Assembly: GCA_001695645.1 (NCBI GenBank)
Contig: LVZN01000034.1
Coordinates: 30,001 to 62,000 of the forward strand
Direction of reading: 5' to 3'
Length of the DNA: 32,000 nt
Origin: Erysipelotrichaceae bacterium MTC7
GTDB lineage: Bacteria > Bacillota_I > Bacilli_A > Erysipelotrichales > Erysipelotrichaceae
The translations under genes and the position numbers were made by a program. This document shows, in pieces, positions 2,682-27,136 of the stretch. A model generated the notes under the pieces. The model was not told the origin of the DNA, searched no databases, and saw only the letters and a list, made by a program, of their open reading frames with translations. Positions within the stretch are counted from its first letter, which is position 1. Each line of letters begins with the position of its first letter.

Positions 2682-3581
2682 ATGTTAAGTGCAAAATTCG
2701 GGATTGAGATTGAATTTACCGGGATTACAAGGGAAAGGGCAGCCAAAGTCGTTGCAGAGTATTTGCAAGGCATTTACAGTGAAGGCGGGACTTACTACGA
2801 CACCAAGAAGGTAAAAACTCCAGATGGTCGAGTGTGGAAGTTTATGTACGATGGGAGCATCAACTGTCAAAGAAAAGAAGGTAGAAGAAAAGTAGCTGCA
2901 GGTAGAGCTTATAGTGTTGAGCTGGTTAGTCCAATCCTAACCTACCGGGAGGACATTGAAACTTTGCAAGAGCTAGTAAGAAAGCTTCGCAAAGCTGGAG
3001 CCTTTACAAATACATCTTGCGGAATTCACATTCATCTAGACGGTGCTGAACATACCCCACGAAGCATTCGAAACTTTGTAAATATCATTGCAAGCAAAAA
3101 TGACTTATTTTATAAAGCACTTCAGATTGCACCGCAGAGAATGAATTACTGCAAAAAGATGGACAGCATTTTGGTTGAGAAGATGAACCGTAAAAAGCCT
3201 AAAACCATGAGACAAATTGAGGACATTTGGTACGAAGGTTACAGCGAGAGTAGAAGCACTCATTACCACAACAGCCGCTACCATTTCCTCAACCTTCACA
3301 GCTTTTTTACCGGAAACCATACAGTTGAACTTAGAGGATTCAATAGCGAACTTCATGCAGGAAAGATAAGAAGCTACATTGTTCTAGCACTTGCCATCAA
3401 CCACCAAGCCTTAACACAAAAGTGTGCATCAGCAAAGAAACCGCAGGTGGAAAACGAAAAATTTGCCATGAGAACCTATCTAAACCGGATTGGTTTCATT
3501 GGAGATGAATTTGCAAACTGCAGAGAACATTTGACAGCAGCACTTTCGGGTTCAGCTGCATGGCGGTTTCGGGCGGCCTGA
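2682..3581 (+). CDS. Putative amidoligase (glutamine-synthetase-like fold, Amidoligase_2-type)
   Basis: Strong RBS (AAAAGGAG). The strand motifs FGIEIEFTG, YSVELVSPIL, CGIHIHLDG and VELRGFNS are typical of the GS/GCS2-like carboxylate-amine ligase fold as seen in the Amidoligase_2 family. The gene is followed by an AIG2/GGCT gene, the neighbourhood described for Firmicutes members. Confidence 0.8.
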   Translation: MLSAKFGIEIEFTGITRERAAKVVAEYLQGIYSEGGTYYDTKKVKTPDGRVWKFMYDGSINCQRKEGRRKVAAGRAYSVELVSPILTYREDIETLQELVRKLRKAGAFTNTSCGIHIHLDGAEHTPRSIRNFVNIIASKNDLFYKALQIAPQRMNYCKKMDSILVEKMNRKKPKTMRQIEDIWYEGYSESRSTHYHNSRYHFLNLHSFFTGNHTVELRGFNSELHAGKIRSYIVLALAINHQALTQKCASAKKPQVENEKFAMRTYLNRIGFIGDEFANCREHLTAALSGSAAWRFRAA

Positions 3582-12860: not shown

Positions 12861-15317
12861 ATGTCTGATAATTTTGGCTTAAAGATTGGCATTGAGGGAG
12901 AAAAAGAGTTTAAGAATGCCCTTCGTGATATCAATCAATCCTTTAAGGTTCTAGGTAGTGAGATGAAACTCGTGTCCTCGGAATTTGATAGAAATGATAA
13001 AAGTGTTCAGGCGATAACCGCTCGAAATGAAGTTTTGAACAAAGCCATTGAAGCACAGAAGGATAAAATCTCTACACTGGAAGCCGCTCTAAAAAATGCT
13101 TCTGAGAGCTTTGGCGAGAACGATAGACGTACACAAAATTGGGCTATTCAGCTGAATAATGCAAAAGCCCAACTTAATGATATGGAACGAGAACTAGAAG
13201 TGACAGCTGATGAAGCAGATGATCTTGGAGAGGAACTTGAGGATACAGGTAATATTGCAGATGAGACTGGTAGCAAGTTTGAGAAGCTCGGCGGTGTCCT
13301 TAAAGGTATCGGTGTGGCGATGGGTACAGTTGCTGTTGCCGCAGGAGCTGCTGCGATTAAGCTTGGTAAAGAGGTAGTTGCTCAGTTCGGAGAGTTAGAA
13401 CAGAACCTCGGTGGCTCTGAGGCGGTATTCGGTCAATATGCCGCATCAATTCAAAAAACTGGTGAAGAGGCTTACAAAAATCTCGGTGTTTCCCAAAGTG
13501 AGTATCTTGCTACGGCAAACAAAATGGGTGCATTGTTCCAAGGCTCTGGCATAGAACAGCGCAAAAGCCTTGAACTGACAGAAAAAGCTATGCAACGAGC
13601 AGCTGATATGGCATCTGTAATGGGTATTGATATGCAAGTGGCACTGGACTCAGTAGCAGGAGCAGCAAAGGGTAATTTCACCATGATGGATAACCTTGGT
13701 GTTGCTATGAATGCTACCAATATCGAGGCCTATGCACTGGCAAAAGGCCTAGATTTCACTTGGAATACAGCTACACAAGCGGAAAAAGCTGAAGTAGCCA
13801 TGCAGATGTTTTTTGAGAACACAGAGCAGTATGCTGGCAACTTTGCCCGTGAATCAACAGAAACCGTTACAGGTTCGCTGGGTTTACTCCAAGCCGCACT
13901 CGGCTCGTTTACAGCAGGACTTGGCAATGCTGATGCAGATATGACGAATTTGACACAGAATCTTGTAGATGCATTTCAATCGGTTGTTGCTAATATTGTC
14001 CCAGTTTTAGAGAATATCGTAACTGCATTACCTACGGCAACAGGTGCGATATTATCAGCTGTGGGCGACTTGCTTCCTATGCTTATGAGGACTGTTACGG
14101 AACTGTTTTCTCAAGTACTGGAGGCAATTCTGAGTCTTTTGCCAGAACTCATTCCAGCTACTGTTGAAGCTGTAATGACGATTGTTGGGGCATTGATTGA
14201 TAATCTACCACTCCTAATTAATGCTGCAGTGGAACTGGTCACTGCACTTGTAGAAGGCATCGGGTTGGCTTTACCAAAACTCATACCAGCAACAGTTCTT
14301 GCTGTAACACAGATTGTACAAGGATTAACTGACAACTTGCCAATGATACTGGAGGCAGCCGTTCAGCTTATTATGGGGCTTTCCCAAGGTCTAGTTGACG
14401 CTATTCCGCAGTTAATTGCCGCATTACCCGCCATCATTACCGCTTTAGTTGACTTTATTATTGGTGCCATTCCGCAGATTATCGATGCAGGTATACAGCT
14501 TTTGGTGTCACTAGTTGAAGCATTGCCGGAAATCATTGCAGCAATAGTTGCTGCAATCCCACAGATAATTGATGGTTTAGTTAAGGCGATACTTAGCTCA
14601 ATCCCCCAAATAATTGATGCCGGGGTGAATCTGTTGATTGCCTTAATTCAAAATTTACCACTCATCATCACTACTGTGGTGGCAGCGATACCTAAGATTA
14701 TTACCTCGCTTGTCAATGCAATTATTGGCAGCATCCCACAGATAATTCAAGCGGGTATCCAACTTTTAGTATCACTGATTAAAAACCTACCTACTATTAT
14801 CGTGGAAGTTGTCAAAGCTGTCCCACAGATAATCGCAGCTTTAGTTAAGGGTTTTACGGGTTCAATTGGGCAGATGGCTCAAGTTGGTGGCAATCTTATC
14901 AAAGGTCTATGGCAAGGAATCTCTGATGCGGGAGCATGGCTCTGGGGGAAAATATCCGGTTTCTTTGGGGGTGTGGTGGATAAAATCAAAAACTTCTTTG
15001 GTATTCGCTCACCTTCTGCACTTTTTGCAGGACTTGGTGACAATATGGCACAGGGGCTTGGTCAAGGCTTTGAGAAGACGATGGCGCAGGTTGGTGAGGA
15101 TATGCAAAATGCTATTCCCACAGACTTTAGCACATCAGGTATAAACCTTAGCAGTTCTATCAATGGGTCAGTCGGTACTGGGGGGGTTGGTGGTTCGCTT
15201 ATCACCATACAGCAGATGATAGTTCGATCCGAGGACGATATCCGCAGGATTTCTCAGGAACTGTACAACTTGATGGAAACCGGCTCGAGGGCACAAGGAC
15301 GATTCAATCCCGCTTAA
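12861..15317 (+). CDS. Tail tape measure protein
   Basis: 818 aa, the largest helical ORF after the chaperone pair. It has an N-terminal coiled coil and a long hydrophobic Ala/Ile/Leu repeat core. RBS GAAAGGAGGG. Confidence 0.95.
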   Translation: MSDNFGLKIGIEGEKEFKNALRDINQSFKVLGSEMKLVSSEFDRNDKSVQAITARNEVLNKAIEAQKDKISTLEAALKNASESFGENDRRTQNWAIQLNNAKAQLNDMERELEVTADEADDLGEELEDTGNIADETGSKFEKLGGVLKGIGVAMGTVAVAAGAAAIKLGKEVVAQFGELEQNLGGSEAVFGQYAASIQKTGEEAYKNLGVSQSEYLATANKMGALFQGSGIEQRKSLELTEKAMQRAADMASVMGIDMQVALDSVAGAAKGNFTMMDNLGVAMNATNIEAYALAKGLDFTWNTATQAEKAEVAMQMFFENTEQYAGNFARESTETVTGSLGLLQAALGSFTAGLGNADADMTNLTQNLVDAFQSVVANIVPVLENIVTALPTATGAILSAVGDLLPMLMRTVTELFSQVLEAILSLLPELIPATVEAVMTIVGALIDNLPLLINAAVELVTALVEGIGLALPKLIPATVLAVTQIVQGLTDNLPMILEAAVQLIMGLSQGLVDAIPQLIAALPAIITALVDFIIGAIPQIIDAGIQLLVSLVEALPEIIAAIVAAIPQIIDGLVKAILSSIPQIIDAGVNLLIALIQNLPLIITTVVAAIPKIITSLVNAIIGSIPQIIQAGIQLLVSLIKNLPTIIVEVVKAVPQIIAALVKGFTGSIGQMAQVGGNLIKGLWQGISDAGAWLWGKISGFFGGVVDKIKNFFGIRSPSALFAGLGDNMAQGLGQGFEKTMAQVGEDMQNAIPTDFSTSGINLSSSINGSVGTGGVGGSLITIQQMIVRSEDDIRRISQELYNLMETGSRAQGRFNPA
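14139..14864 (+). repeat. In-frame tandem repeat array inside the tape measure gene (22-aa units, then three 44-aa/132-nt units)
   Basis: Five ~22-aa units of the form LP(E/L/K/M)LI..... are followed by three 44-aa units starting IPQIIDAGIQLLVSLV... at 14469, 14601 and 14733, exactly 132 nt apart. The underlying periodicity is 11 residues. Confidence 0.8.
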
Positions 15318-15332
15318 GGAAGGAGGATGAAA

Positions 15333-16106
15333 ATGGGGTTCACATTTAACGGAATATCATCGCAATCAATGAATATAAATGCTAGGCTTACAAACTGGCA
15401 AGCATCACCCTCATTGCGAAACTCCTTTGTAACAATACCTGGCAAGCCTGGTATTGCTGACTTTGGTAGCGATATTGCAGAGAAAATAATCACAGTTCAT
15501 TGTAATGTCTACCCACAATATAAATTTTCTAAATTGGTATCTGTTATGGATAACCTTGCTGATTGGCTGAATCCTGAACGTGGGGTGCAACAACTTGTGT
15601 TGGACGATGTACCTGACCGTTATTTCATTGCCCGTCTGTCAGAAGCAGTAGACTGTGACAGACTCATTCTTTCAGCTGGTGAATTTGATTTGAAATTTGT
15701 TTGCCCAGATCCCCATGCCTACGCTTTAACGGATGAAACCTATACTATAACAGCCGAGGGAGAAAATACCGTTACAAGGCTAAAAGGCAATGCCGACTCC
15801 GAACCAGTGTATTTGATAAAAGGAATAATTCCTTCAGGGACAAACACATATGTTTCCATTCAGACTAATAATGAAGAAATTCGTGTTATTGGTCCTTTGT
15901 ATGATGGTGAAACATTAATAATTGATACAGGAAAGGTCACAGCAAAGGTCGTTGATACTAGTGGCGAGACACTACGTAATGGCCTACCGCTTATGCAAGA
16001 ACTTAATTTTCCTGTACTTCGTAAGGGTAACAATACTGTGACGATTAATCCTGTAGGGGCGGATTTTATGGAGCTTAAAATACAAGCAAAAAGCCGATGG
16101 AGGTGA
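15333..16106 (+). CDS. Distal tail protein (Dit; siphovirus tail component family)
   Basis: MGFTFNGISS... is a typical Dit N-terminus, and the gene sits directly after the TMP gene. AGGAGG (15321-15326) favours ATG 15333 over ATG 15327. Confidence 0.85.
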   Translation: MGFTFNGISSQSMNINARLTNWQASPSLRNSFVTIPGKPGIADFGSDIAEKIITVHCNVYPQYKFSKLVSVMDNLADWLNPERGVQQLVLDDVPDRYFIARLSEAVDCDRLILSAGEFDLKFVCPDPHAYALTDETYTITAEGENTVTRLKGNADSEPVYLIKGIIPSGTNTYVSIQTNNEEIRVIGPLYDGETLIIDTGKVTAKVVDTSGETLRNGLPLMQELNFPVLRKGNNTVTINPVGADFMELKIQAKSRWR

Positions 16107-16111
16107 TGCAA

Positions 16112-18631
16112 ATGGCAATTAAATCAATATTGACATCACAAACTGACTTTACAGGTGAGTTTCCTGTAAGTGAGAATACTCTTGCTCTTTGGCGATTCAA
16201 TGAGTCTGGACCTGACTCCGATGTTAAACTTGTCGATGCGAGTGGTCATGGTCGGCACATCGCTATATCGGGATGGTCTGGCACATCGGCAAGTTTCCCC
16301 AATGGTCGCTATGGACGATTTTTTCGCCAGAATATTGTTAATCCGACATCAGAGAAAACCTACTTGATTGCAAAGAATGATGGTACATTTTTCTCCAATT
16401 TAGGCGATAAAATCGCAGTAGGTGGATGGATAAACCCAACTACCTACTCTGTAGGACAGACCTTTATTCCGCTGTTTAATACAAGACAAGGTCCGGGTCA
16501 ACCTATTCTATACTTGTCCCTGTACCAAGGCAGACCTCGAATGATGTTATATAACTCTTCTGGTTCACTGATCCTCGACCAGAGTGAAACACCAAGTTTT
16601 AACATGGTTAATGGTGGATGGTACTTTATTGCAGCAATTATTGAAGTGAATGCCAAGACATCGCAGTTTATTCTATGTAACCGAGCAGACGGAACGGTCT
16701 GGATTGCACCCAAACGGACATTCACGGGAACATTAAATCCATCTTGTACAGCAGATATTGTGATTGGAATGCATGCAAATCAGTATTATTATGCAGGTGG
16801 ATTTGATGATTGGTTTATCGAAGTGAATTCACAGCTTACAATTGAGGATTTAGAACGCCATTTCAAACAGTCATTGCTTGCCAATGGCGGTGATACTAGT
16901 AGTGCGATTGATGCTATTACAGAACCTGGTGTGGTAACTCTCCTCAAAGATAATAACAACAGATATCCTGAAGTTGGGCAACTTACGACTATAGCTGTAG
17001 AATGTTCTCTTGCGGGTAGTGGTCGAGTGTCTGTAACTTCGGAGTATACAGCAGGCGTGACTTCTATTTCTACTATAGAGACGTCTACGTCAGACGATTT
17101 GCAGGATTGGTCGGCGTGGCAGGAGGTGGGTTCCAACGGTGAACTGGTTTCTCCAAACCGTAACTTTATTCGTTATAGGATTACACTTTCAACTATTGAT
17201 CCCTTGGTTACACCGAAACTTTTGGATATCACACTTCACGACATACCGAAAGCTCCATATGAAAAACTGGGTTTTGCTAGGCCTGTCGTGCTGGACGAGA
17301 ATGGCGCATGGGAAGCAGTACTTGAAAATGCATATGACATCATCGTAACGGGAGAGATTAATGGCGCAGATACTTTGGAATTCAAACTGCCATGGAATGA
17401 TAGCAAACGTGTATATTTAGATAATGAAAAACAGGTTCAAGTTGCACATGACATTTATCGCATAAGGACACTGACAGATGAAAAAGGAGCAGATGGAACA
17501 GGGATTCTGACCACTGTATATGCGGAAGCAGCATTTTATGATTTGACCTTTTCAGATGAAAAACAACCGCGAGAGTTTAATGCCGATTTACCTTCTGTTC
17601 CAATGAGTTATGCGTTGGAAGGCACAGGATGGTCTCTTGGTGTAGTTGATGTCACAACCAAACGGACATGGCAATGCCAAGAGAAGAATGCATTGGCCAT
17701 ACTCAGAATGACGCAACAGATTCACGGTGGAGACTTAGTATTTGATAGTCGAAACCGTCTTGTAAATTTACTTACATTTAGTGGTAGAGATAGTGGTGCA
17801 TTATTTGCCTATAAGAAAAACCTTACAGGTATCAAGAGAGTTGTTGATACCCGCTCTCTGGTGACAAGGTTATATGCCCATGGTAAAGATGGCATGACCT
17901 TTGCCACTATCAATAGTGGCAAGGAATATGTAGAAAACTATGAATATTGCAATGAGGTGCGGGTTTCAACACTCGATCTTTCGAATTTCACAAATCCTTA
18001 TCAAATGCTTGAGTTTACGAATATGCGACTCGCAGAATTTTCAAAGCCCCGTGTTTCCTATGTGCTATCAGCGATGGATTTGTCTGTGCTGACAGGTTAT
18101 GAGCATGAAAGGTGGTCACTTGGCGACATTGTGACGGTGGATGATAGAGATTTGAATCTTACTATCAAAACAAGGGTTGTTCGCAGACAATACAATCTTC
18201 AGGAGCCATGGAAAACTGTACTTGAATTATCATCAAAACTTCGTGAACTTGGGGATACGTCTTCTAGCATTCTCGCTGATCAGCTCGACCAAAGCAACCT
18301 CATTGGGCAGGAAATCAAAGATATGGTGCCGTTTAACCATCTGCGTAATAGTAGAGCAGACGATGGCTTTGCTTACTGGCAGAATTCAGGTTTTGAGGTG
18401 GACACTGAAAAAGGTGTGACAGGTACAGCTTCATTTAAAGCGGTAGGTTCTGCAACCTCTACAAAAAGTATGGCTCAAACAATATATCCTGCATCCCGCC
18501 GTAACTACACCATATCAGCACAAATAGGATCAGATAATCTCCAAAAAGGTATAGATGGACAAGTGGGTATCGAGGTAGTATTTGAGTTTGAAGATGGAAC
18601 TACTGAAACGAGATTTATTGACCTGTTTTAA
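16112..18631 (+). CDS. Tail-associated (Tal-like) minor structural protein with an N-terminal LamG-like extension and a C-terminal partial carbohydrate-binding-type jelly-roll
   Basis: GGAGGTG lies 6 nt before ATG 16112. Residues ~25-260 resemble a LamG/concanavalin-like domain (LALWRFNE...ASGHGRH...GGWYFIAA...GGFDDWFIE). From ~aa 400, INGADTLEFKLPWND...IYRIRT resembles the canonical prophage-tail/Tal N-terminal domain. The last ~100 aa (NHLRNSRADDGFAYWQN...) resemble the first half of a CBM4_9-like domain. Confidence 0.85.
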   Translation: MAIKSILTSQTDFTGEFPVSENTLALWRFNESGPDSDVKLVDASGHGRHIAISGWSGTSASFPNGRYGRFFRQNIVNPTSEKTYLIAKNDGTFFSNLGDKIAVGGWINPTTYSVGQTFIPLFNTRQGPGQPILYLSLYQGRPRMMLYNSSGSLILDQSETPSFNMVNGGWYFIAAIIEVNAKTSQFILCNRADGTVWIAPKRTFTGTLNPSCTADIVIGMHANQYYYAGGFDDWFIEVNSQLTIEDLERHFKQSLLANGGDTSSAIDAITEPGVVTLLKDNNNRYPEVGQLTTIAVECSLAGSGRVSVTSEYTAGVTSISTIETSTSDDLQDWSAWQEVGSNGELVSPNRNFIRYRITLSTIDPLVTPKLLDITLHDIPKAPYEKLGFARPVVLDENGAWEAVLENAYDIIVTGEINGADTLEFKLPWNDSKRVYLDNEKQVQVAHDIYRIRTLTDEKGADGTGILTTVYAEAAFYDLTFSDEKQPREFNADLPSVPMSYALEGTGWSLGVVDVTTKRTWQCQEKNALAILRMTQQIHGGDLVFDSRNRLVNLLTFSGRDSGALFAYKKNLTGIKRVVDTRSLVTRLYAHGKDGMTFATINSGKEYVENYEYCNEVRVSTLDLSNFTNPYQMLEFTNMRLAEFSKPRVSYVLSAMDLSVLTGYEHERWSLGDIVTVDDRDLNLTIKTRVVRRQYNLQEPWKTVLELSSKLRELGDTSSSILADQLDQSNLIGQEIKDMVPFNHLRNSRADDGFAYWQNSGFEVDTEKGVTGTASFKAVGSATSTKSMAQTIYPASRRNYTISAQIGSDNLQKGIDGQVGIEVVFEFEDGTTETRFIDLF

Positions 18632-18637
18632 GAAAGG

Positions 18638-18844
18638 ATGGTGATTGATTTGGCTGTATTTCAACAAATTGCTCGTGATGCAACACCTAAAGGGTATGGG
18701 AAGCTTCACTCTATCACCATTCGGTTGGTAGTTTCAAACTGCACGGGAGAAGTATATTTCACTGACATTATGCTGCAGGCAGGTTCTATAGCCACTGGCT
18801 GGGTCGGTCATGTATGCGAAATCAAGTGGACGAACGACGGGTAG
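18638..18844 (+). CDS. Small ORF in frame with Tal, encoding the missing C-terminal half of the jelly-roll. Either a readthrough or reinitiation product, or a nonsense-separated fragment.
   Basis: It is in the same frame as 16112-18631, separated by TAA (18629-18631) plus 2 codons. It encodes ...HSITIRLVVSNCTGEVYFTDIMLQAG, a typical terminal-strand pattern of CBM-type beta-sandwiches. No well-spaced RBS precedes ATG 18638. Confidence 0.45.
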   Translation: MVIDLAVFQQIARDATPKGYGKLHSITIRLVVSNCTGEVYFTDIMLQAGSIATGWVGHVCEIKWTNDG

Positions 18845-18853
18845 GTGATGGCT

Positions 18854-19423
18854 ATGCAGGAAAGCAATTTTATACGTTTTGCGGAAGTCATAAAAGTAAA
18901 ATCAGAAAAGCGTATAGTTAGTATTACTGTGCGTCCCCTTATTACCAACTGTACGGGTTCGATTTATTTCACCGACCTACAACTTCAGGAGGGTGACAAG
19001 CTGACAGGATACACGCTACACACGGAAACGTTCCTAAAGCATTCGCCTAATCCGGTACGTTTCCACAATGGTGTAGTCCGTAGTGGAGACACAATCATTA
19101 TTTTTAACCTCGGAGAAACTTCAAGCGGGCTAGATTGTTATATCTACCCCCTGCAAGCTATGGAAGCTGGCAGTATTCAGCTTTCACAGGGGATGGGTTC
19201 ACATAAGGTAAAATTTGATTCAGAGGCTTACCCAGGTGATGAATTTGCACTTAAGGCTTCAACAAGAGAGTGTTTGAGAAACGGCTATCCCACGCCGAAG
19301 CATGGATTCTTTCAATACACAGCCGCTACCGACAGTAAGCACCAAGTAAAGCTACAAGACAGAAAATCTGCTAGGGTATATTTCGAATACAAAGAAATGC
19401 TGAAAGGGGATCTGCGTCCATGA
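18854..19423 (+). CDS. Tail or baseplate-associated protein starting with a second copy of the half jelly-roll motif
   Basis: It is again in the same frame, separated by a single TAG (18842-18844). AGGTG lies 6 nt before ATG 18854; the ORF track starts at GTG 18845. The N-terminus VSITVRPLITNCTGSIYFTDLQLQEG is paralogous to the 18638 ORF. The stop overlaps the next start (ATGA). Confidence 0.6.
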   Translation: MQESNFIRFAEVIKVKSEKRIVSITVRPLITNCTGSIYFTDLQLQEGDKLTGYTLHTETFLKHSPNPVRFHNGVVRSGDTIIIFNLGETSSGLDCYIYPLQAMEAGSIQLSQGMGSHKVKFDSEAYPGDEFALKASTRECLRNGYPTPKHGFFQYTAATDSKHQVKLQDRKSARVYFEYKEMLKGDLRP

Positions 19424-21888
19424 AAGATTATATTAAGGGTAAACGCTGTATGGTATGGTCCTTCATGGGCAATGCTCGGATGTATCAGGCTTTGAACGAT
19501 TACGGTGACCGCTTAGATACTGTTGGTATTTTCACTTTTGAGGTAGACATCACAGGCACGATAACGGAAACAGGTACTAGCGTTTCTTCCCTTACTCCAT
19601 ATCGTACAAAGTGGCCACATATCAAATGGTTACTTACCATTATGAATCATGGGACAGAGAGCATATTTACGGCTCTGAGAAATAACGAAGGTGGTGCAAA
19701 GTCGAAATTCCTCTCAGAAATAGTACGTATTATGAACAAATACCCTTGGTGTGCAGGTGTAGATATCGATTTAGAGCGCGGTGGCGGATTTGAGAACCGT
19801 GCTACCGCAAATGCTCTATTCGCTGATATATACTCGACTGTTAAAAACTATGATTCATCAAAACTGGTCAATATCTGCTTACCTGGAATGACGGGTGTGC
19901 AAGGATCAGTTGGTGGAGAAAATTGGTGTGTTTATGCCGACCTTAACGATTATTGTGATACGGCAGCAATCATGAGTTATGGCATGGCATGGGCAGGTTC
20001 AGCTCCAGGTCCAGTATCACCAAGGAGCTGGCTTGAAGGTATCTACAATTATGCTATTACAGCTATGTCACCACAAAAAGTATATATGGGTTTACCTGGT
20101 TACGGTTGGAATTGGCAGATTTACGACTATCCATCCAACCTAGGTAAGACTTATCGCGGTACATCGAACACTTACTATGCAGCTAAGAACTGGATGACTG
20201 GGGTGTATAACTTTACAAATGATCAGCCTCCACAACCATTTATCCCAATCATTGCCTACTGGGATGATCACGATAAAGTACCATGGGCGCTGCCACATGT
20301 CTACGATTATATGGAAGGCTGGGACGCAGTATCACGAGAATCTCCTATTATTGCTGAAACATATAATCGGCGAAAATATCTTACTTGTTACGGGAAAACA
20401 CAAAAGTCGGAGTTTGGAACTATATATGTTAACCGAGATGGTGAACCGAACAGCTACACAGATGGTGTTGTGGTTGGTAATGGAATGATCACTCTTTCGT
20501 CAAGTGAAGGTAAAGCGGAGTACAACTTTACAATTGACAAATCAGGTACTTATGATGTAGTTGTACAGCTTTGCTTTCCGTTCTGGGATAAGAATGGTAT
20601 CACAATTGCACTTGACGGTACAGTGGTTAGCTACTCAGAGAATCGTTTATGGTGGCCATACTGGAGGAAAACTTATTGGGCAGAACTTGCCACTAATGTA
20701 AATCTCCTAGCAGGAACACATAGCATTACGATTGAAGGTGGTGTAGTTGGTACTCAATTTTATGGTTTTCGGGTTTGTTCTAATTTTAGTGAACATCCTT
20801 CTGCTGGAGAGGCAACCTTCAGTTTATCTCCACGAAGCTTTAAAGACGTAAATGGTAACATGGCTGTTCCAGACAAAGGGTTTAAGCTTACTACAGAGGT
20901 TTTGCGCCGTAAGCCGGATTCAGCGTTAGCTTGGTATGAAGACTTTAGAGATTCCGTCATCCTGCCAGAAAGCTACTGGCAGACGTTATCGGGGAGTTGG
21001 AGTGTATGGCAAAATCCTGATGACAATGGCAATCGCCCGTATTCTCAGCTTGAAGGAAGTGGTCAGCTTGCCTGGAAATACGACAGCTTTAGTGATGTGC
21101 ATATTCGTGCTAGAATTGCCTTTCCTATGAGCGGTAGCGGAAGAGCAGGAGTGTTTTGTGGGAATGTGTTTTGTTGTATCAACATTGATGCCCAACAAGT
21201 GGAGCTTTACCAAGGCTCTACATTACTTGGTAGTTATCCGGCAAGTTACTATAAGACTTCAGATGCTGACATCCGCACCAATCCGAATATGTATCTCATT
21301 GAAATGAGGAAACGTGGAAATAAGGTGCGTGTCTACTCTGGGAATTCCAACACACTTCGTTTTACTGCAAACATCTCAAGTACGGGTGGCTATTGTGGTA
21401 TTCAGTCCGATGGGCAAATTAAATGTGAACTTCTCCGCTTAGGCGATGCATGGACTTATGAACCTTACGAAGCCTTTGATGTCACCATGCCAGACGGATC
21501 ACTTATGCAGTATGGCAGAATTGCTAGGAATGGTGTAACTTGGGATAGTAAGTTTCATGTATTTACTCTTACAGCTGATGTAGAGGAAGCCTCCACCAGA
21601 AGTGAGGATATTTCCATGGATTATGACTTTTATCATAGTAATCTCTTGCAGATACCATGCAATGCAGATTATACAGCGAAGGTTATACCAAAGGACATAA
21701 ACGTCTGGATATCTCGGTTGTTTCTCGGTGATGCAGATGGCTTTTCAATTTTGTACTATCAAGATGTGGATTCGCTGGTCTACTGGTCAAACGAAGCGGC
21801 TTATCGCTGGGACTTACGGGGTATTGCTATCTGGTCATTGGGACAGGAAGATATGCGGCTATGGGAAGCTTTGCCAAAACAAATATAA
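19420..21888 (+). CDS. Tail fibre / receptor-binding-type protein with a GH18-like (chitinase/SleL-like) TIM barrel interrupted by large lectin-like insertions
   Basis: The GH18 catalytic block is AGVDIDLE (D-x-D-x-E at 19762-19776). Barrel strands include IKWLLTIMN, AAIMSYGM and KVYMGLPGYGWNW, and the terminal strand GIAIWSLGQED sits only at the extreme C-terminus. About 450 aa in between contain CBM-like (TYDVVVQL...GTHSITIEG) and concanavalin/LamG-like (WSVWQ...IRARIAF...YLIEMRKRGNKVRVY) segments. Confidence 0.8.
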   Translation: MKDYIKGKRCMVWSFMGNARMYQALNDYGDRLDTVGIFTFEVDITGTITETGTSVSSLTPYRTKWPHIKWLLTIMNHGTESIFTALRNNEGGAKSKFLSEIVRIMNKYPWCAGVDIDLERGGGFENRATANALFADIYSTVKNYDSSKLVNICLPGMTGVQGSVGGENWCVYADLNDYCDTAAIMSYGMAWAGSAPGPVSPRSWLEGIYNYAITAMSPQKVYMGLPGYGWNWQIYDYPSNLGKTYRGTSNTYYAAKNWMTGVYNFTNDQPPQPFIPIIAYWDDHDKVPWALPHVYDYMEGWDAVSRESPIIAETYNRRKYLTCYGKTQKSEFGTIYVNRDGEPNSYTDGVVVGNGMITLSSSEGKAEYNFTIDKSGTYDVVVQLCFPFWDKNGITIALDGTVVSYSENRLWWPYWRKTYWAELATNVNLLAGTHSITIEGGVVGTQFYGFRVCSNFSEHPSAGEATFSLSPRSFKDVNGNMAVPDKGFKLTTEVLRRKPDSALAWYEDFRDSVILPESYWQTLSGSWSVWQNPDDNGNRPYSQLEGSGQLAWKYDSFSDVHIRARIAFPMSGSGRAGVFCGNVFCCINIDAQQVELYQGSTLLGSYPASYYKTSDADIRTNPNMYLIEMRKRGNKVRVYSGNSNTLRFTANISSTGGYCGIQSDGQIKCELLRLGDAWTYEPYEAFDVTMPDGSLMQYGRIARNGVTWDSKFHVFTLTADVEEASTRSEDISMDYDFYHSNLLQIPCNADYTAKVIPKDINVWISRLFLGDADGFSILYYQDVDSLVYWSNEAAYRWDLRGIAIWSLGQEDMRLWEALPKQI

Positions 21889-23520: not shown

Positions 23521-23581
23521 AGTCGTTGATATATAAGGGTTTCAGAGGTAACATGTGACCTGCCAAGAAGGAGGTGAGAGG

Positions 23582-25147
23582 ATGAAAAGGATAACGAAAA
23601 TAGAAGGGAATATGGCCAATTCTTTTATTAAGCAAAAAACACGAGTAGTTGCCTACTGCCGTGTTTCAACAGATAGTAATGAACAGCTAGTCAGCTTGCA
23701 AGCACAAAATGCCCATTATGAGACCTACATAAAGGCGAATCCAGAATGGGAATATGCAGGCTTATATTATGACGAGGGAATCAGCGGCACGAAAAAGGAA
23801 AACCGCTCTGACCTACTTAGAATGTTATCAGACTGTGAAACTGGGAGAATTGACTTAATCATTACAAAGTCCATCAGTCGATTTGCGAGAAATACTACAG
23901 ACTGCTTGGAGATGGTTCGAAAACTGATAGACCTTGGGGTTCATATCTATTTTGAGAAGGAAAACATCAATACGGGTTCAATGGAAAGTGAATTGATGCT
24001 CTCCATTTTAAGTGGGCTTGCAGAAAGTGAGTCAATTTCCATTTCTGAAAATACTAAATGGGCAATTCAAAGACGATTTCAAAACGGAACCTTTAAAATT
24101 TCCTACCCACCATATGGGTATCAAAATATTGACGGTCAGATGATAGTAAACCTCAAGCAGGCTGAAGTTGTGAAGTATATTTTTGCAGAGGTATTATCGG
24201 GCAAAGGCACACAGAAAGTTGCAAATGATCTTAATCAAAAGGGTATCCCTTCAAAAAGAGGTGGTCGTTGGGCAGCTACTACCATTCGAGGAATTCTAAC
24301 CAATGAAAAATATACCGGCGATGTTATTTTGCAAAAGACTTATACTGACAGCCATTTTAACAGGCACACCAATTATGGTGAGGAAAATATGTATCTAGTA
24401 GAAAACCACCATGAAGCAATTATCAGCCATGAAGATTTTGAAGCTGTAGATGCCATTCTCAATCAAAGGGCAAAGGAAAAAGGCATCGAAAAGCGCAACA
24501 GTAAATATCTAAACCGATATTCTTTCTCTGGCAAAATTATCTGCTCGGAATGTGGCAGTACCTTTAAAAGACGGATTCATTCATCCGGTCCAAGAAAATA
24601 CATTGCTTGGTGCTGCAGTAAGCATATAAGCAATATAACGGAATGTTCTATGCAGTTCATTCGAGATGAAGATATAAAGACTGCATTTGTTACGATGATG
24701 AATAAACTCATATTTGGTCAGAAGTTCATATTAAGACCACTTTTGCAGGGGTTACGTAACCAGAACAATGCAGCGAGTTTTCGTAGAATTGAAGAGTTGG
24801 AAACTAAAATTGTAAACAACATGGAGCAGAGCCAGGTACTGACAGGTTTAATGGCCAAAGGGTATCTGGAACCTGCTCTGTTTAATAAAGAAAAGAATGC
24901 ACTGGAGGCAGAAAGAGAAAGGTTTCTTGCCGAAAAGGATCAACTTACTCGTTCCGTCAATGGCAATATTGCAAAGGTAGATGAGGTTGACCGTCTGCTT
25001 AAGTTTGCCACTAAGTCCAAAATGCTCACAGCTTATGAGGATGAGTTGTTTGAAGATTACGTAGAGAGGATTATTGTCTTTTCACGGGAGGAAGTCGGTT
25101 TTGAATTAAAATGTGGAATCACATTGAGGGAAAGGTTGGTGAATTAG
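23582..25147 (+). CDS. Large serine recombinase (resolvase/invertase catalytic domain + Recombinase domain + zinc ribbon + coiled coil), copy 1
   Basis: Motifs: [18 protein letters not shown] (catalytic Ser), [12 protein letters not shown], the Recombinase domain (YPPYGY...), CSECGSTFKRR...CCSKH and a C-terminal coiled coil. ATG 23582 follows AAGGAGGTGAGAGG. Confidence 0.93.
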   Translation: MKRITKIEGNMANSFIKQKTRVVAYCRVSTDSNEQLVSLQAQNAHYETYIKANPEWEYAGLYYDEGISGTKKENRSDLLRMLSDCETGRIDLIITKSISRFARNTTDCLEMVRKLIDLGVHIYFEKENINTGSMESELMLSILSGLAESESISISENTKWAIQRRFQNGTFKISYPPYGYQNIDGQMIVNLKQAEVVKYIFAEVLSGKGTQKVANDLNQKGIPSKRGGRWAATTIRGILTNEKYTGDVILQKTYTDSHFNRHTNYGEENMYLVENHHEAIISHEDFEAVDAILNQRAKEKGIEKRNSKYLNRYSFSGKIICSECGSTFKRRIHSSGPRKYIAWCCSKHISNITECSMQFIRDEDIKTAFVTMMNKLIFGQKFILRPLLQGLRNQNNAASFRRIEELETKIVNNMEQSQVLTGLMAKGYLEPALFNKEKNALEAERERFLAEKDQLTRSVNGNIAKVDEVDRLLKFATKSKMLTAYEDELFEDYVERIIVFSREEVGFELKCGITLRERLVN

Positions 25148-25561
25148 ATGGGTCACACACCCTATGGATATAGAATTGAAGATGGAAAGGCTGTTGTAGA
25201 TGATATAGCAGCAGAACAAGTAAAAGAATTATTTTCAGGATACTTGGCAGGACTTTCTTTGAAGGGTGCTGCTAAAAAAGCTGGGATAGACTGCTATCAT
25301 GCCACTGCAGGAAAGATGTTGCAGAACAAGCAATACCTTGGCGATGAATTCTACCCTCCAATTATTGATGAGGAGACATTTAAAAAGGCTGGGGTGGAAA
25401 AACGAAAACGAGCAGAAAAGCTCGGAAGGATATGGGAGCCTAAAGATGAACCGGAAAGGGATTACCCTGTAAAGTTCAAAGCAAAACCTCTGGTGCAAAA
25501 ATATGAAGATCCATACAAGCAGGCGGAATATGCCTACAATTTGATAGAAAGCGAGGTGTAA
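25148..25561 (+). CDS. Recombinase-domain-only protein (no serine catalytic domain)
   Basis: 137 aa. MGHTPYGYRIEDGKAVVDDIAAEQVKELF...L...A matches the start of the Recombinase (PF07508-type) domain of large serine recombinases. The N-terminal resolvase domain is absent. The start abuts the upstream stop (TAGATG). Confidence 0.8.
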   Translation: MGHTPYGYRIEDGKAVVDDIAAEQVKELFSGYLAGLSLKGAAKKAGIDCYHATAGKMLQNKQYLGDEFYPPIIDEETFKKAGVEKRKRAEKLGRIWEPKDEPERDYPVKFKAKPLVQKYEDPYKQAEYAYNLIESEV

Positions 25562-25564
25562 CAA

Positions 25565-27136
25565 GTGGCAGTGAGTAGGAATGTAACAGTCATTCCGGCA
25601 ATTAAGCGAGTCGGAAATAATAAAAATAGTGAAAGCAAACCCAAAATACGAGTGGCTGCTTACTGCCGTGTTTCAACGGATAGTGAGGAGCAGGCTTCAA
25701 GTTATGAAATTCAGATAGAGCATTATACAAACTATATTAAGAAGAACAAGGAATGGGAATTGGCAGGTATTTTTGCGGATGACGGCATCACAGGTACAAA
25801 TACCAAAAAGCGTGATGAATTCAACCGCATGATCGAAGAGTGCATGGCAGGAAATATTGAGATGATCATTACAAAATCCATCAGCCGATTTGCGAGAAAC
25901 ACGTTGGACTGCCTTAAATACATTCGTCAATTAAAGGATAAAAACATCGCTGTATTCTTTGAAAAAGAGAATATCAACACCATGGATTCCAAGGGTGAAG
26001 TATTGCTAACTATCATGGCATCCCTTGCCCAACAAGAAAGCCAATCCTTAAGCCAGAACGTTAAGCTGGGTATTCAGTATCGATATCAGCAAGGTGAAGT
26101 TCAGGTCAACCACAAGCGTTTCCTTGGATACACCAAGGATGAAAACAAGCAACTAGTGATTGACCCAGAGGGTGCTGAGGTTGTTAAACGGATTTACAGG
26201 GAGTACCTAGAAGGAGCCAGCCTTTTACAGATAGCAAGAGGACTAGAAGCAGACGGGATTCTTACAGCGGCGGGAAAAGCCAAATGGAGGCCAGAAACAC
26301 TGAAAAAGATACTGCAGAATGAAAAGTACATCGGTGATGCCCTTCTACAAAAAACATATACGGTTGATTTCCTTTCTAAAAAGCGAGTCAAGAATAACGG
26401 CATCGTTCCCCAATATTATGTAGAAAATAGCCACGAGCCTATCATTCCACGAGACCTTTTTATGCAGGTTCAAGAAGAGATGGTTCGAAGAGCCAACCTT
26501 CGTGGCGGGAAAGGCGGTAAAAAGAGAGTTTACAGCAGCAAGTATGCTTTATCGAGTATTGTTTACTGCGGACAGTGCGGTGATATTTACAGACGGGTAC
26601 ATTGGAATAACCGAGGTTACAAGTCTATTGTTTGGAGATGCGTCAGCCGCTTGGAGGAAAAAGGATCTGAATGTACTGCCCCTACCATAAACGAGGAAAT
26701 ATTGCAGACAGCAGTGGTCAAGGCTATTAACGAACTTTTGGCTAACAAAGAACCCTTCCTCTCAACGTTACAAAAAAACATAGCCGCCATACTTAATGAA
26801 GGAAATGATAATGCCACTGATGACATCGATAGCAAATTGGAAGAATTACAGCAGCAGCTTCTTATACAAGCAAAATCCAAGAACGACTATGAAGATGTAG
26901 CTGATAAAATTTATCGACTTCGGGAGTTAAAGCAAAATGCACTGGTTGAAAGTGCAGAGCGAGAAGGGAAAAGGCAACGCATCGCTGAGATGACGGATTT
27001 CTTAAATGAACAATCCTGCGAGTTGGAGGAATATGATGAGCAGTTAGTAAGGTGGCTTATTGAAAAGGTAACGATCCACGCTAACAGGGTTGAGGTGGAA
27101 TTTAAGTCTGGAATTAGTATAGACGTTAAAAATTGA
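25565..27136 (+). CDS. Large serine recombinase, copy 2
   Basis: Motifs: [64 protein letters not shown]...WRC and a C-terminal coiled coil. GTG start 3 nt after the upstream stop. Confidence 0.93.

Follow-up and report, generated by a model that had tools for sequence, protein, structure and literature searches.

Three consecutive open reading frames (ORFs) at the tail tip of a temperate siphophage, located in a 32,000-nucleotide (nt) stretch of the genome of Erysipelotrichaceae bacterium MTC7 (contig LVZN01000034.1; hereafter the window), lie in one and the same reading frame and raise the question of whether they are one gene, broken or recoded, or three. The ORFs at 16097–18631 (844 amino acids, aa), 18638–18844 (68 aa as listed) and 18845–19423 (192 aa as listed) were all in frame 2, and a TAA at 18629–18631 and a TAG at 18842–18844 were the sole interruptions of the shared frame. 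These observations had been made in a first-pass annotation of the window and were reproduced here, as were the peptide strings quoted in it, which were present in the translations. The first ORF encodes Tal, a tail tip/tail-associated lysin-type hub protein; the products of the other two are referred to as the small and the medium protein. Three explanations had been offered for the arrangement: a nonsense mutation or decaying receptor-binding tip, stop-codon readthrough or reinitiation giving Tal isoforms, and a domain split over two chains. By chance alone, three co-directional genes share a frame in one of nine cases. Judging from the comparison with relatives, the TAA and TAG are real, conserved stops of three separate, tightly coupled tail-tip genes. 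The idea of recoding was wrong, and that of a two-chain split domain is probably right, the arrangement being conserved over a very wide range of phages.

Gene boundaries and translation starts

The gene boundaries were compared across 55 loci: besides the window, these were 45 contigs from IMG/VR and nine annotated phage records. In all 55, the Tal gene stopped right after the sequence ...IDL[FY], with TAA (28 loci), TAG (8) or TGA (19) as the stop codon. Nearly all of approximately 74 C-terminal fragments of Tal also ended at IDL-x, the exceptions being truncated or garbled. An orthologue comparison of this kind had been proposed in the first-pass annotation; it revealed conserved stops and no sense codons at the positions of the TAA and the TAG. 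The nine annotated records listed Tal, a gene of approximately 62–65 aa and a gene of approximately 190–280 aa as separate coding sequences, with the small gene left unannotated in Javan630.

A tblastn search with the junction region detected the same three-gene layout in 190 records of phages that infect Firmicute or Actinobacterial hosts. Microbacterium phages accounted for 166 of these records, and the others were mostly phages of Bacillus, Geobacillus, Streptococcus, Erysipelothrix and gut Clostridia. All three genes were kept from the phages of Clostridia, Bacillus, Geobacillus and Streptococcus to those of Microbacterium and Micrococcus. A megablast search of the locus DNA against the phage collection gave no match, and a search at the protein level was needed. 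Homologues of the small protein (n = 120) were 37–95 aa long, mostly 64 aa, and those of the medium protein (120 listed) were all 185–213 aa long, most of them 188–189 aa. Mean column identity was 77% in the small and 68% in the medium family.

Fused versions of these genes were not encountered. A hidden Markov model (HMM) search of 1.84 billion representative proteins contained no Tal–small fusion among the best 150 of 203 matches at E ≤ 1e-3, and three large protein searches yielded no genuine fusion of either Tal with the small protein or the small with the medium protein. One seeming Tal–small fusion (P0179, 186 aa) looked corrupted by frameshift-type errors and is probably an assembly artefact; P0321 and P0352 look like similarly chimeric or garbled calls. 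Except in L037, where approximately 130 nt intervened, the small gene adjoined the Tal stop at a distance of −1 to 18 nt. Most Firmicute-type loci had spacers of 9–18 nt, and the phages of Micrococcus and Microbacterium had spacers of −1 or +1 nt. Five IMG/VR contigs (L010–L014) shared both junction sequences of the window over the stretches shown.

The 68-aa ORF had been described as having no well-spaced ribosome-binding site. This was an artefact of a mis-picked start: the site appeared to be missing because the ATG at 18638 had been taken as the start. The small gene occupies 18650–18844 (forward strand, as do all genes of the tail tip described here), starts with TTG, ends with the TAG at 18842–18844 and encodes 64 aa beginning with MAVFQQ. 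The TTG at 18650 aligned with the start of the relatives (M-A-x-F-Q-Q); most of them have ATG there, and several others, among them L015/L016, L025, L026, L035 and L036, have TTG. PHROG 3473 matched the small protein over positions 3–64 of 66. The Shine–Dalgarno (SD) region ahead of it (18633–18645), as read from the sequence, consists of AAAGGA (18633–18638) and GGTGAT (18640–18645); relatives carried GGAGG, GAGGA or AAGGAG within the 9–18 nt spacers ahead of the aligned start. In-frame ATG (18638) and GTG (18641) codons precede the TTG (18638–18649), and ORF finders and some database calls (P0001 and P0004, 68 aa) add four residues (MVID) to the protein.

The medium gene (18854–19423) starts with ATG and encodes 189 aa, in line with the lengths of its homologues. 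Position 1 of PHROG 12827 coincided with the residue of this ATG, and the match extended over 1–190 of 194. The SD of the medium gene (AGGTGAT, 18843–18849) overlaps the TAG of the small gene, so that stop and SD together occupy 18842–18849, and the arrangement GGG-TAG-GTG...ATG was seen again in close relatives. The geometry of the two downstream genes is identical: GGTGAT at 18640–18645 is followed by 4 nt and the TTG at 18650, and GGTGAT at 18844–18849 by 4 nt and the ATG at 18854. From this SD and start geometry we infer a tight translational coupling that would yield separate proteins. For the annotation of such loci, this means that the two stops mark neither a pseudogene nor a recoding site, with the starts of the small and medium genes at TTG 18650 and ATG 18854, respectively.

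Frame relation and the recoding question

The three-gene layout was kept among relatives, whereas the shared frame was not. In 41 distinct Tal–small junction sequences, the small gene was in frame 0, +1 and +2 in 21, 4 and 16 cases, respectively, and out-of-frame junctions occurred even where the small protein was 73–88% identical to that of the window. The second junction, between the small and medium genes, kept the frame in 32 of the 38 loci where the two genes are adjacent; these in-frame cases came mostly from the clade of the window and had gaps of 0, 3, 6 or 9 nt. The junction was out of frame in phi1605, Javan630, NatCom_11578, GBK2, GR1, BSP7 and Olihed, and it was split by 0.5–2.3 kb of unrelated cargo in 11 IMG/VR relatives (L019–L022, L024, L029, L034, L036–L038 and L043). 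Stable RNA structure was found at neither stop; the segments 18600–18700 (z = +1.43) and 18815–18915 (z = +1.16) were less structured than their shuffles.

These results bear on three explanations in which the two stops are something other than ordinary gene ends. One is programmed readthrough, or termination–reinitiation giving fusions, as a source of the short and extended Tal isoforms considered in the first-pass annotation. All three ORFs are indeed in frame in the window and its closest relatives (L010–L016), the in-frame majority at the second junction points the same way, and a Tal–small readthrough chain would be structurally tolerable, since the AlphaFold2 model described below is a model of that very chain and a homologous protein (P0438) has the domain as one chain. 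However, the first junction was out of frame in 20 of the 41 distinct sequences, the second was out of frame in the seven phages listed above and contained cargo in 11 loci, the three stop codons were used interchangeably, and both downstream genes had their own conserved SD and start. None of the hallmarks of recoding (a conserved frame, downstream genes devoid of initiation signals, a stimulatory structure or leaky stop context) was seen, and no orthologue had a sense codon at either stop. TAA followed by G is not known as a leaky stop context. Because the frame was not conserved and the stops lacked stable RNA structure, readthrough or fusion-yielding reinitiation is not the selected function of this arrangement, and we consider it very improbable; trace readthrough in the window's lineage is conceivable, but nothing points to it. 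The likeness to the Qbeta A1 readthrough protein and the G/GT frameshift of tail chaperones, which both give two products with a common N-terminus as had been envisaged for Tal, therefore ends at a frame relation that is not conserved, downstream ORFs with initiation signals of their own and the lack of a stimulatory structure.

The superficial look of a single long frame broken by two stops would be explained by a nonsense mutation of recent origin, by a sequencing error or by decay of the receptor-binding tip. Such explanations are excluded by the identical position of the stop in all 55 loci over very large evolutionary distances, by the end-to-end matches to PHROGs 3475, 3473 and 12827, and by the conservation of the downstream families (mean column identities as given above), and the five contigs with the window's junction sequences also speak against them. 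Sense codons in orthologues and downstream decay, as expected of a pseudogene, were not observed, and we attach next to no probability to this option. The same negligible weight is given to a reassignment of TAG or TAA to a sense codon in this phage. Recoding is known in some gut phages, and some of the relatives came from gut-phage collections (Ca. Heliusvirales records). However, the 32 long ORFs of the window are all open under translation table 11 and end in TAA (16), TGA (10) or TAG (6), no other gene in the window has in-frame stops, and among the relatives all three stops occur at either junction.

The cargo site at the second junction corresponds to 18845–18853 of the window, on the same strand. 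The cargo comprised helix-turn-helix (HTH)/XRE-like regulators with membrane proteins, as well as FRG-domain-like, DUF2971-like, RhuM-like and CotH-like proteins, all named by motif reading. The junction appears to be an insertion hotspot for moron or defence genes inside the tail module.

A jelly roll predicted to be split over two proteins

With three separate genes established, we hypothesize that the first conserved stop cuts a carbohydrate-binding module (CBM)-like domain and that the small protein supplies the missing strands in trans. Tal trimers would end in approximately two-thirds of a CBM4_9/CBM16-like β-jelly roll. The remaining three strands would reside on the separate 64-aa protein, the gene of which lies 18 nt downstream with its TTG start and own SD, probably in translational coupling with Tal. 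This protein would dock on the C-terminus of Tal and complete the sandwich, giving a CBM-like module at the tail tip, and the 189-aa protein would attach to the tip through a paralogous closing module. We regard this as the probable explanation of the locus, with appreciable doubt remaining.

Structure prediction pointed to two complementary parts. The C-terminal part-domain of Tal (approximately aa 744–844; 18326–18628) was predicted to cover a CBM-like jelly roll up to about its eighth strand and to be incomplete alone (AlphaFold2, Foldseek and hhalign to P0438). The small protein would contribute a closing β-hairpin (aa 19–44, LHSITIRLVVSNCTGEVYFTDIMLQA; 18704–18781). For the joined model, AlphaFold2 was given Tal aa 709–844, the natural junction (7 residues) and the small protein as a single chain, with an alignment of 43 Tal rows and five chosen small-protein rows. 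The best model reached a mean predicted local distance difference test (pLDDT) value of 68.7 and a predicted template modelling (pTM) score of 0.63, with 43 residues at pLDDT ≥ 90. Means over 10-residue blocks were 72–92 across the Tal β region (model residues 41–140), and the hairpin of the small protein was modelled at approximately 90. As a control, Tal 709–844 alone with the same 43 rows gave a pTM of 0.48, block means of 50–83 and a single residue at pLDDT ≥ 90; such a poor prediction agrees with an incomplete domain but does not prove one.

The two models also differed in their fold matches. For the joined model, a Foldseek search of the PDB gave 90 matches at E ≤ 1e-3, the leading ones being complete modules of the CBM16, CBM61 and CBM4 families and CBMs of phage tailspikes, whereas the Tal C-terminus alone had no match at this threshold (best E = 1.1). 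The CBM16 structure 2zex_A (147 aa) aligned with the joined model over 155 columns with a template modelling (TM) score of 0.74 normalized to the target, a coverage that was judged too large to come from the approximately 95 Tal residues alone. Matches in BFVD were phage tail fibres with CenC-type CBMs. A fold match to CBM4_9/CBM16 over the whole module was thus obtained for the joined model, from one confident AlphaFold2 model of five. The central fibre of Douge, determined by cryo-electron microscopy (PMC13033339), was a weak Foldseek match and is not a relative. A sequence search of the PDB gave no match for Tal or the small protein (68-aa ORF, E ≤ 10) and two chance-level matches at E = 1 for the medium protein.

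Independent of the models, the small module was found to be homologous to the closing strands of CBM-like domains that are built from a single chain. The small-family profile matched two long proteins, P0438 and P0443, inside complete CBM-like domains. P0438 (726 aa, tail-fibre-like) has two such domains, and the profile matched at 352–386 and 553–587 (library-wide E = 2.9e-6); counted by hand, the small hairpin was approximately 43% identical to 352–386, including the ATGWV after the last strand. With 27% identity over 89 columns (hhalign E = 0.0037), the profile of the Tal C-terminus aligned with P0438 422–532, just ahead of the small-like segment at 553–587. Read from this alignment, the boundary between the Tal and small genes would map to approximately Y532/K533 of P0438, with no gap. 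P0443 (1001 aa) consists of five repeated CBM-like units, and the small-family HMM matched the last strands of all five; its last unit (819–948) was recognized as PF22637 (CBM_4_9_1, 2e-14) with PF02018 (CBM_4_9) nested at 855–938, so that the closing strands are homologous to those of a Pfam-recognized CBM_4_9 domain. Both proteins share with the Tal C-terminus plus small protein the hairpin motif ..I.L.V...tG.vYFtD..L..G..ATGWV, and in P0438 the preceding segment aligns to the Tal C-terminus at the same spacing. Unlike Tal and the small protein, they carry the whole domain on one polypeptide, and they are not Tal proteins. An extension of the medium-family profile into P0438 588–680 was weak and was not used as evidence.

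Several points weigh against the split domain. The other four joined AlphaFold2 models were poor (mean pLDDT 59.6, 48.9, 48.0 and 42.4). The joined model was a covalent single chain and not a two-chain complex, the small-protein part of its alignment had only five rows, and in each row of the alignment three residues of Tal stood in the wrong place. No Pfam CBM (PF02018, PF22637) was detected in the Tal C-terminus, the small protein or the two combined; the Tal C-terminus, alone or with the small protein, matched no Pfam family at all even at E values up to 10, and combined with the medium protein it matched only the irrelevant Herpes_glycop_H (E = 0.16). The alignment between the Tal C-terminus and P0438 was weak, with a probability of 9% at the E value given above. 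The C-terminus of the small protein, TGWVGH..EI.WT.DG (18797–18841, aa 50–64, plus the preceding aa 47–49), is the most conserved stretch of the family, with T49, G50, E57, I58 and T61 invariant; it was modelled at a pLDDT of approximately 30, so part of the protein's role was not captured, and it probably contacts a partner absent from the model. The structural support for the split domain as a whole is a prediction. The proposal in the first-pass annotation of a CBM4_9-type sandwich stands at the level of the fold and of the closing-hairpin homology and fails at the level of Pfam HMMs, which did not match the window's own sequences. The joined prediction that it had suggested did give a CBM-like sandwich, in the one confident model.

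These weaknesses leave room for a different role of the small protein, as an independent tail-tip component or an assembly chaperone, in which case its packing in the joined model would be an artefact of joining two β-rich pieces. Small genes downstream of fibre genes often encode chaperones (Tfa, gp38-type). The four poor models, the absence of a Pfam CBM match and the conserved C-terminal 18 aa that the model leaves unexplained would all agree with such a role. Membership of a tail fibre assembly or chaperone family such as Caudo_TAP was not seen, the 68-aa ORF having no Pfam family at E ≤ 0.01. The Tal piece, given the same alignment, neither folded confidently nor found a fold match by itself and formed a complete CBM-like fold once the small protein was added. 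The small module moreover corresponds by homology to the last strands of CBM-like domains that consist of one chain, lies next to a Tal-C-like segment with the same spacing in P0438, and as a three-stranded β protein of 64 aa is unlikely to be an autonomous fold. We therefore consider an independent component rather unlikely, although it is the alternative to be taken most seriously. The split domain, proposed as one of the options in the first-pass annotation, is favoured by the contrast between the joined and the Tal-only predictions and by the collinear homology to P0438 and P0443. It also agrees with the small gene being always near the Tal stop, except in L037, whereas cargo can come to lie ahead of the medium gene. 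On this basis we infer that the two chains may physically form one domain; carbohydrate binding by the completed domain, and the stoichiometry of the Tal, small and medium proteins, are suggested with the same caution.

The medium protein carries a second version of the closing module. Its N-terminal part of approximately 55 aa (18863–19027) is a paralogue of the small protein (hhalign between the families: P = 98.8%, E = 1e-16, 55 columns) and is followed by a distinct C-terminal domain. This paralogy was found in every lineage examined, Firmicute and Actinobacterial, and the N-terminal module is likely an attachment handle to the tip. A second Tal-C-like half-domain was not found elsewhere in the window, leaving one apparent socket for two plugs. 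An apparent third copy of the module in the last approximately 40 aa of Tal (27% identity by eye, stacked by MAFFT) was not confirmed by hhalign (E = 0.05, probability 1%) and is not claimed. It is conceivable, if doubtful, that the Tal C-terminus is a half-domain socket which may be completed by either plug, the 64-aa protein as a bare cap or the N-terminal module of the 189-aa protein with its distal domain. The three sockets of a Tal trimer could then be filled in differing ratios, resulting in capped and extended tips in one virion or population. If so, the isoforms imagined in the first-pass annotation would arise after all, by protein complementation instead of recoding, and gene fission through a jelly roll would have created a general, swappable docking system in phages from those of Clostridia and Bacillus to those of Microbacterium.

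The proposed split can be placed beside known systems. "Evolved" Tal proteins with C-terminal CBM extensions (e.g., the BppA CBM of Tuc2009, PF22637) share with this locus a PF06605/PF18994 Tal after the tape measure and Dit genes, a CBM-like jelly roll at the distal end and accessory tail proteins encoded downstream. Here, in contrast, the gene boundary would lie inside the terminal jelly roll with its last strands on a 64-aa protein, and the window's sequences are below every Pfam CBM threshold. Donor-strand complementation in chaperone–usher pili is similar in principle, in that an incomplete sandwich is completed by a second chain, providing a very stable non-covalent joint and the attachment of the next subunit. 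It differs in fold (immunoglobulin-like rather than jelly roll), in the number of donated strands (one rather than three) and in its chaperone and usher, which have no equivalent here; the present case is a predicted one that would work like donor-strand complementation and is not a member of that system. The T4 gp38 adhesin and Tfa of Mu and P2 are likewise encoded by a small gene just downstream of a tip or fibre gene, with a product expected at the distal end. They have no sequence or family relationship to the small protein, which looks like the missing piece of its partner's own domain and not like an adhesin or chaperone with a fold of its own. Neither the split nor the small proteins were found to be described in the searchable literature, the coverage of which is incomplete.

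The prediction assigns a testable role to "hypothetical" proteins of 60–70 aa and to the N-termini of tail proteins of approximately 190 aa in at least 190 sequenced phages (166 of Microbacterium), namely that of missing strands of the terminal CBM-like domain of Tal. If true, trans-complementation of a β-sandwich would form a non-covalent connection at the end of the tail that recognizes the host, with bearing on the attachment and exchange of tip proteins and on host-range engineering. Recombinant receptor-binding domains of Tal would then need co-expression of the small protein.

Genomic setting of the tail-tip genes

The locus is located in the late region of the siphophage, in which terminase, portal and capsid genes are followed by those for the tape measure, Dit, Tal, the small and medium proteins, an 822-aa GH18-like minor tail protein, a holin, an amidase endolysin and tandem large serine recombinases. 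The tape measure gene (12861–15317, PHROG 58) and the Dit gene (15327–16106; PF05709, PF22768, PHROG 33) precede the Tal gene (16097–18631), which is the order expected of a Tal. According to Pfam HMMs, Tal contains PF06605 (Prophage_tail; E = 4.7e-77, 259.5 bits against a cut-off of 31.3) and PF18994 (Prophage_tailD1; E = 2.9e-14, 53.4 bits against a cut-off of 23.6), and PHROG 3475 covers it from end to end (1–841 of 841). By these domain and family matches, the protein genuinely belongs to the Tal family of siphophages.

Tal is organized into an N-terminal extension of approximately 390 aa, the Tal D1 and Prophage_tail domains (aa 396–724), a helical linker and the C-terminal β region. D1 normally forms the N-terminus of the hub; in the window it begins at aa 396, behind the extension of approximately 390 residues (Tal aa 1–395, 16097–17280). 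The extension is common to phi1605, Javan630, NatCom, BSP7 and the Microbacterium relatives. The Tal proteins of GBK2 and GR1 (Geobacillus) lack it, and these phages have a separate, unrelated upstream gene instead.

The 822-aa minor tail protein (19420–21888) has a GH18-like domain (PF00704, 3e-14) and a weak CBM35 match (PF16990, 7e-4, below the cut-off), and PHROG 3432 covers it from end to end. The ATG of its gene overlaps the stop of the medium gene as ATGA (19420–19423), in a frame different from that of the medium gene. The Dit, Tal, small, medium and 822-aa genes are joined by overlaps or spacers of ≤18 nt throughout, as would fit a single operon segment with coupled translation.

An array that follows the lysis cassette directly (23555–27136) contains two tandem large serine recombinases of 530 and 523 aa (Resolvase, Recombinase and Zn_ribbon_recom domains), both full-length, with a 137-aa Recombinase-domain fragment between their genes. 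Upstream of the terminase, the window encodes an N6/N4 DNA methylase fused to ParB_N (161–1429) and an Amidoligase_2 protein (2682–3581).

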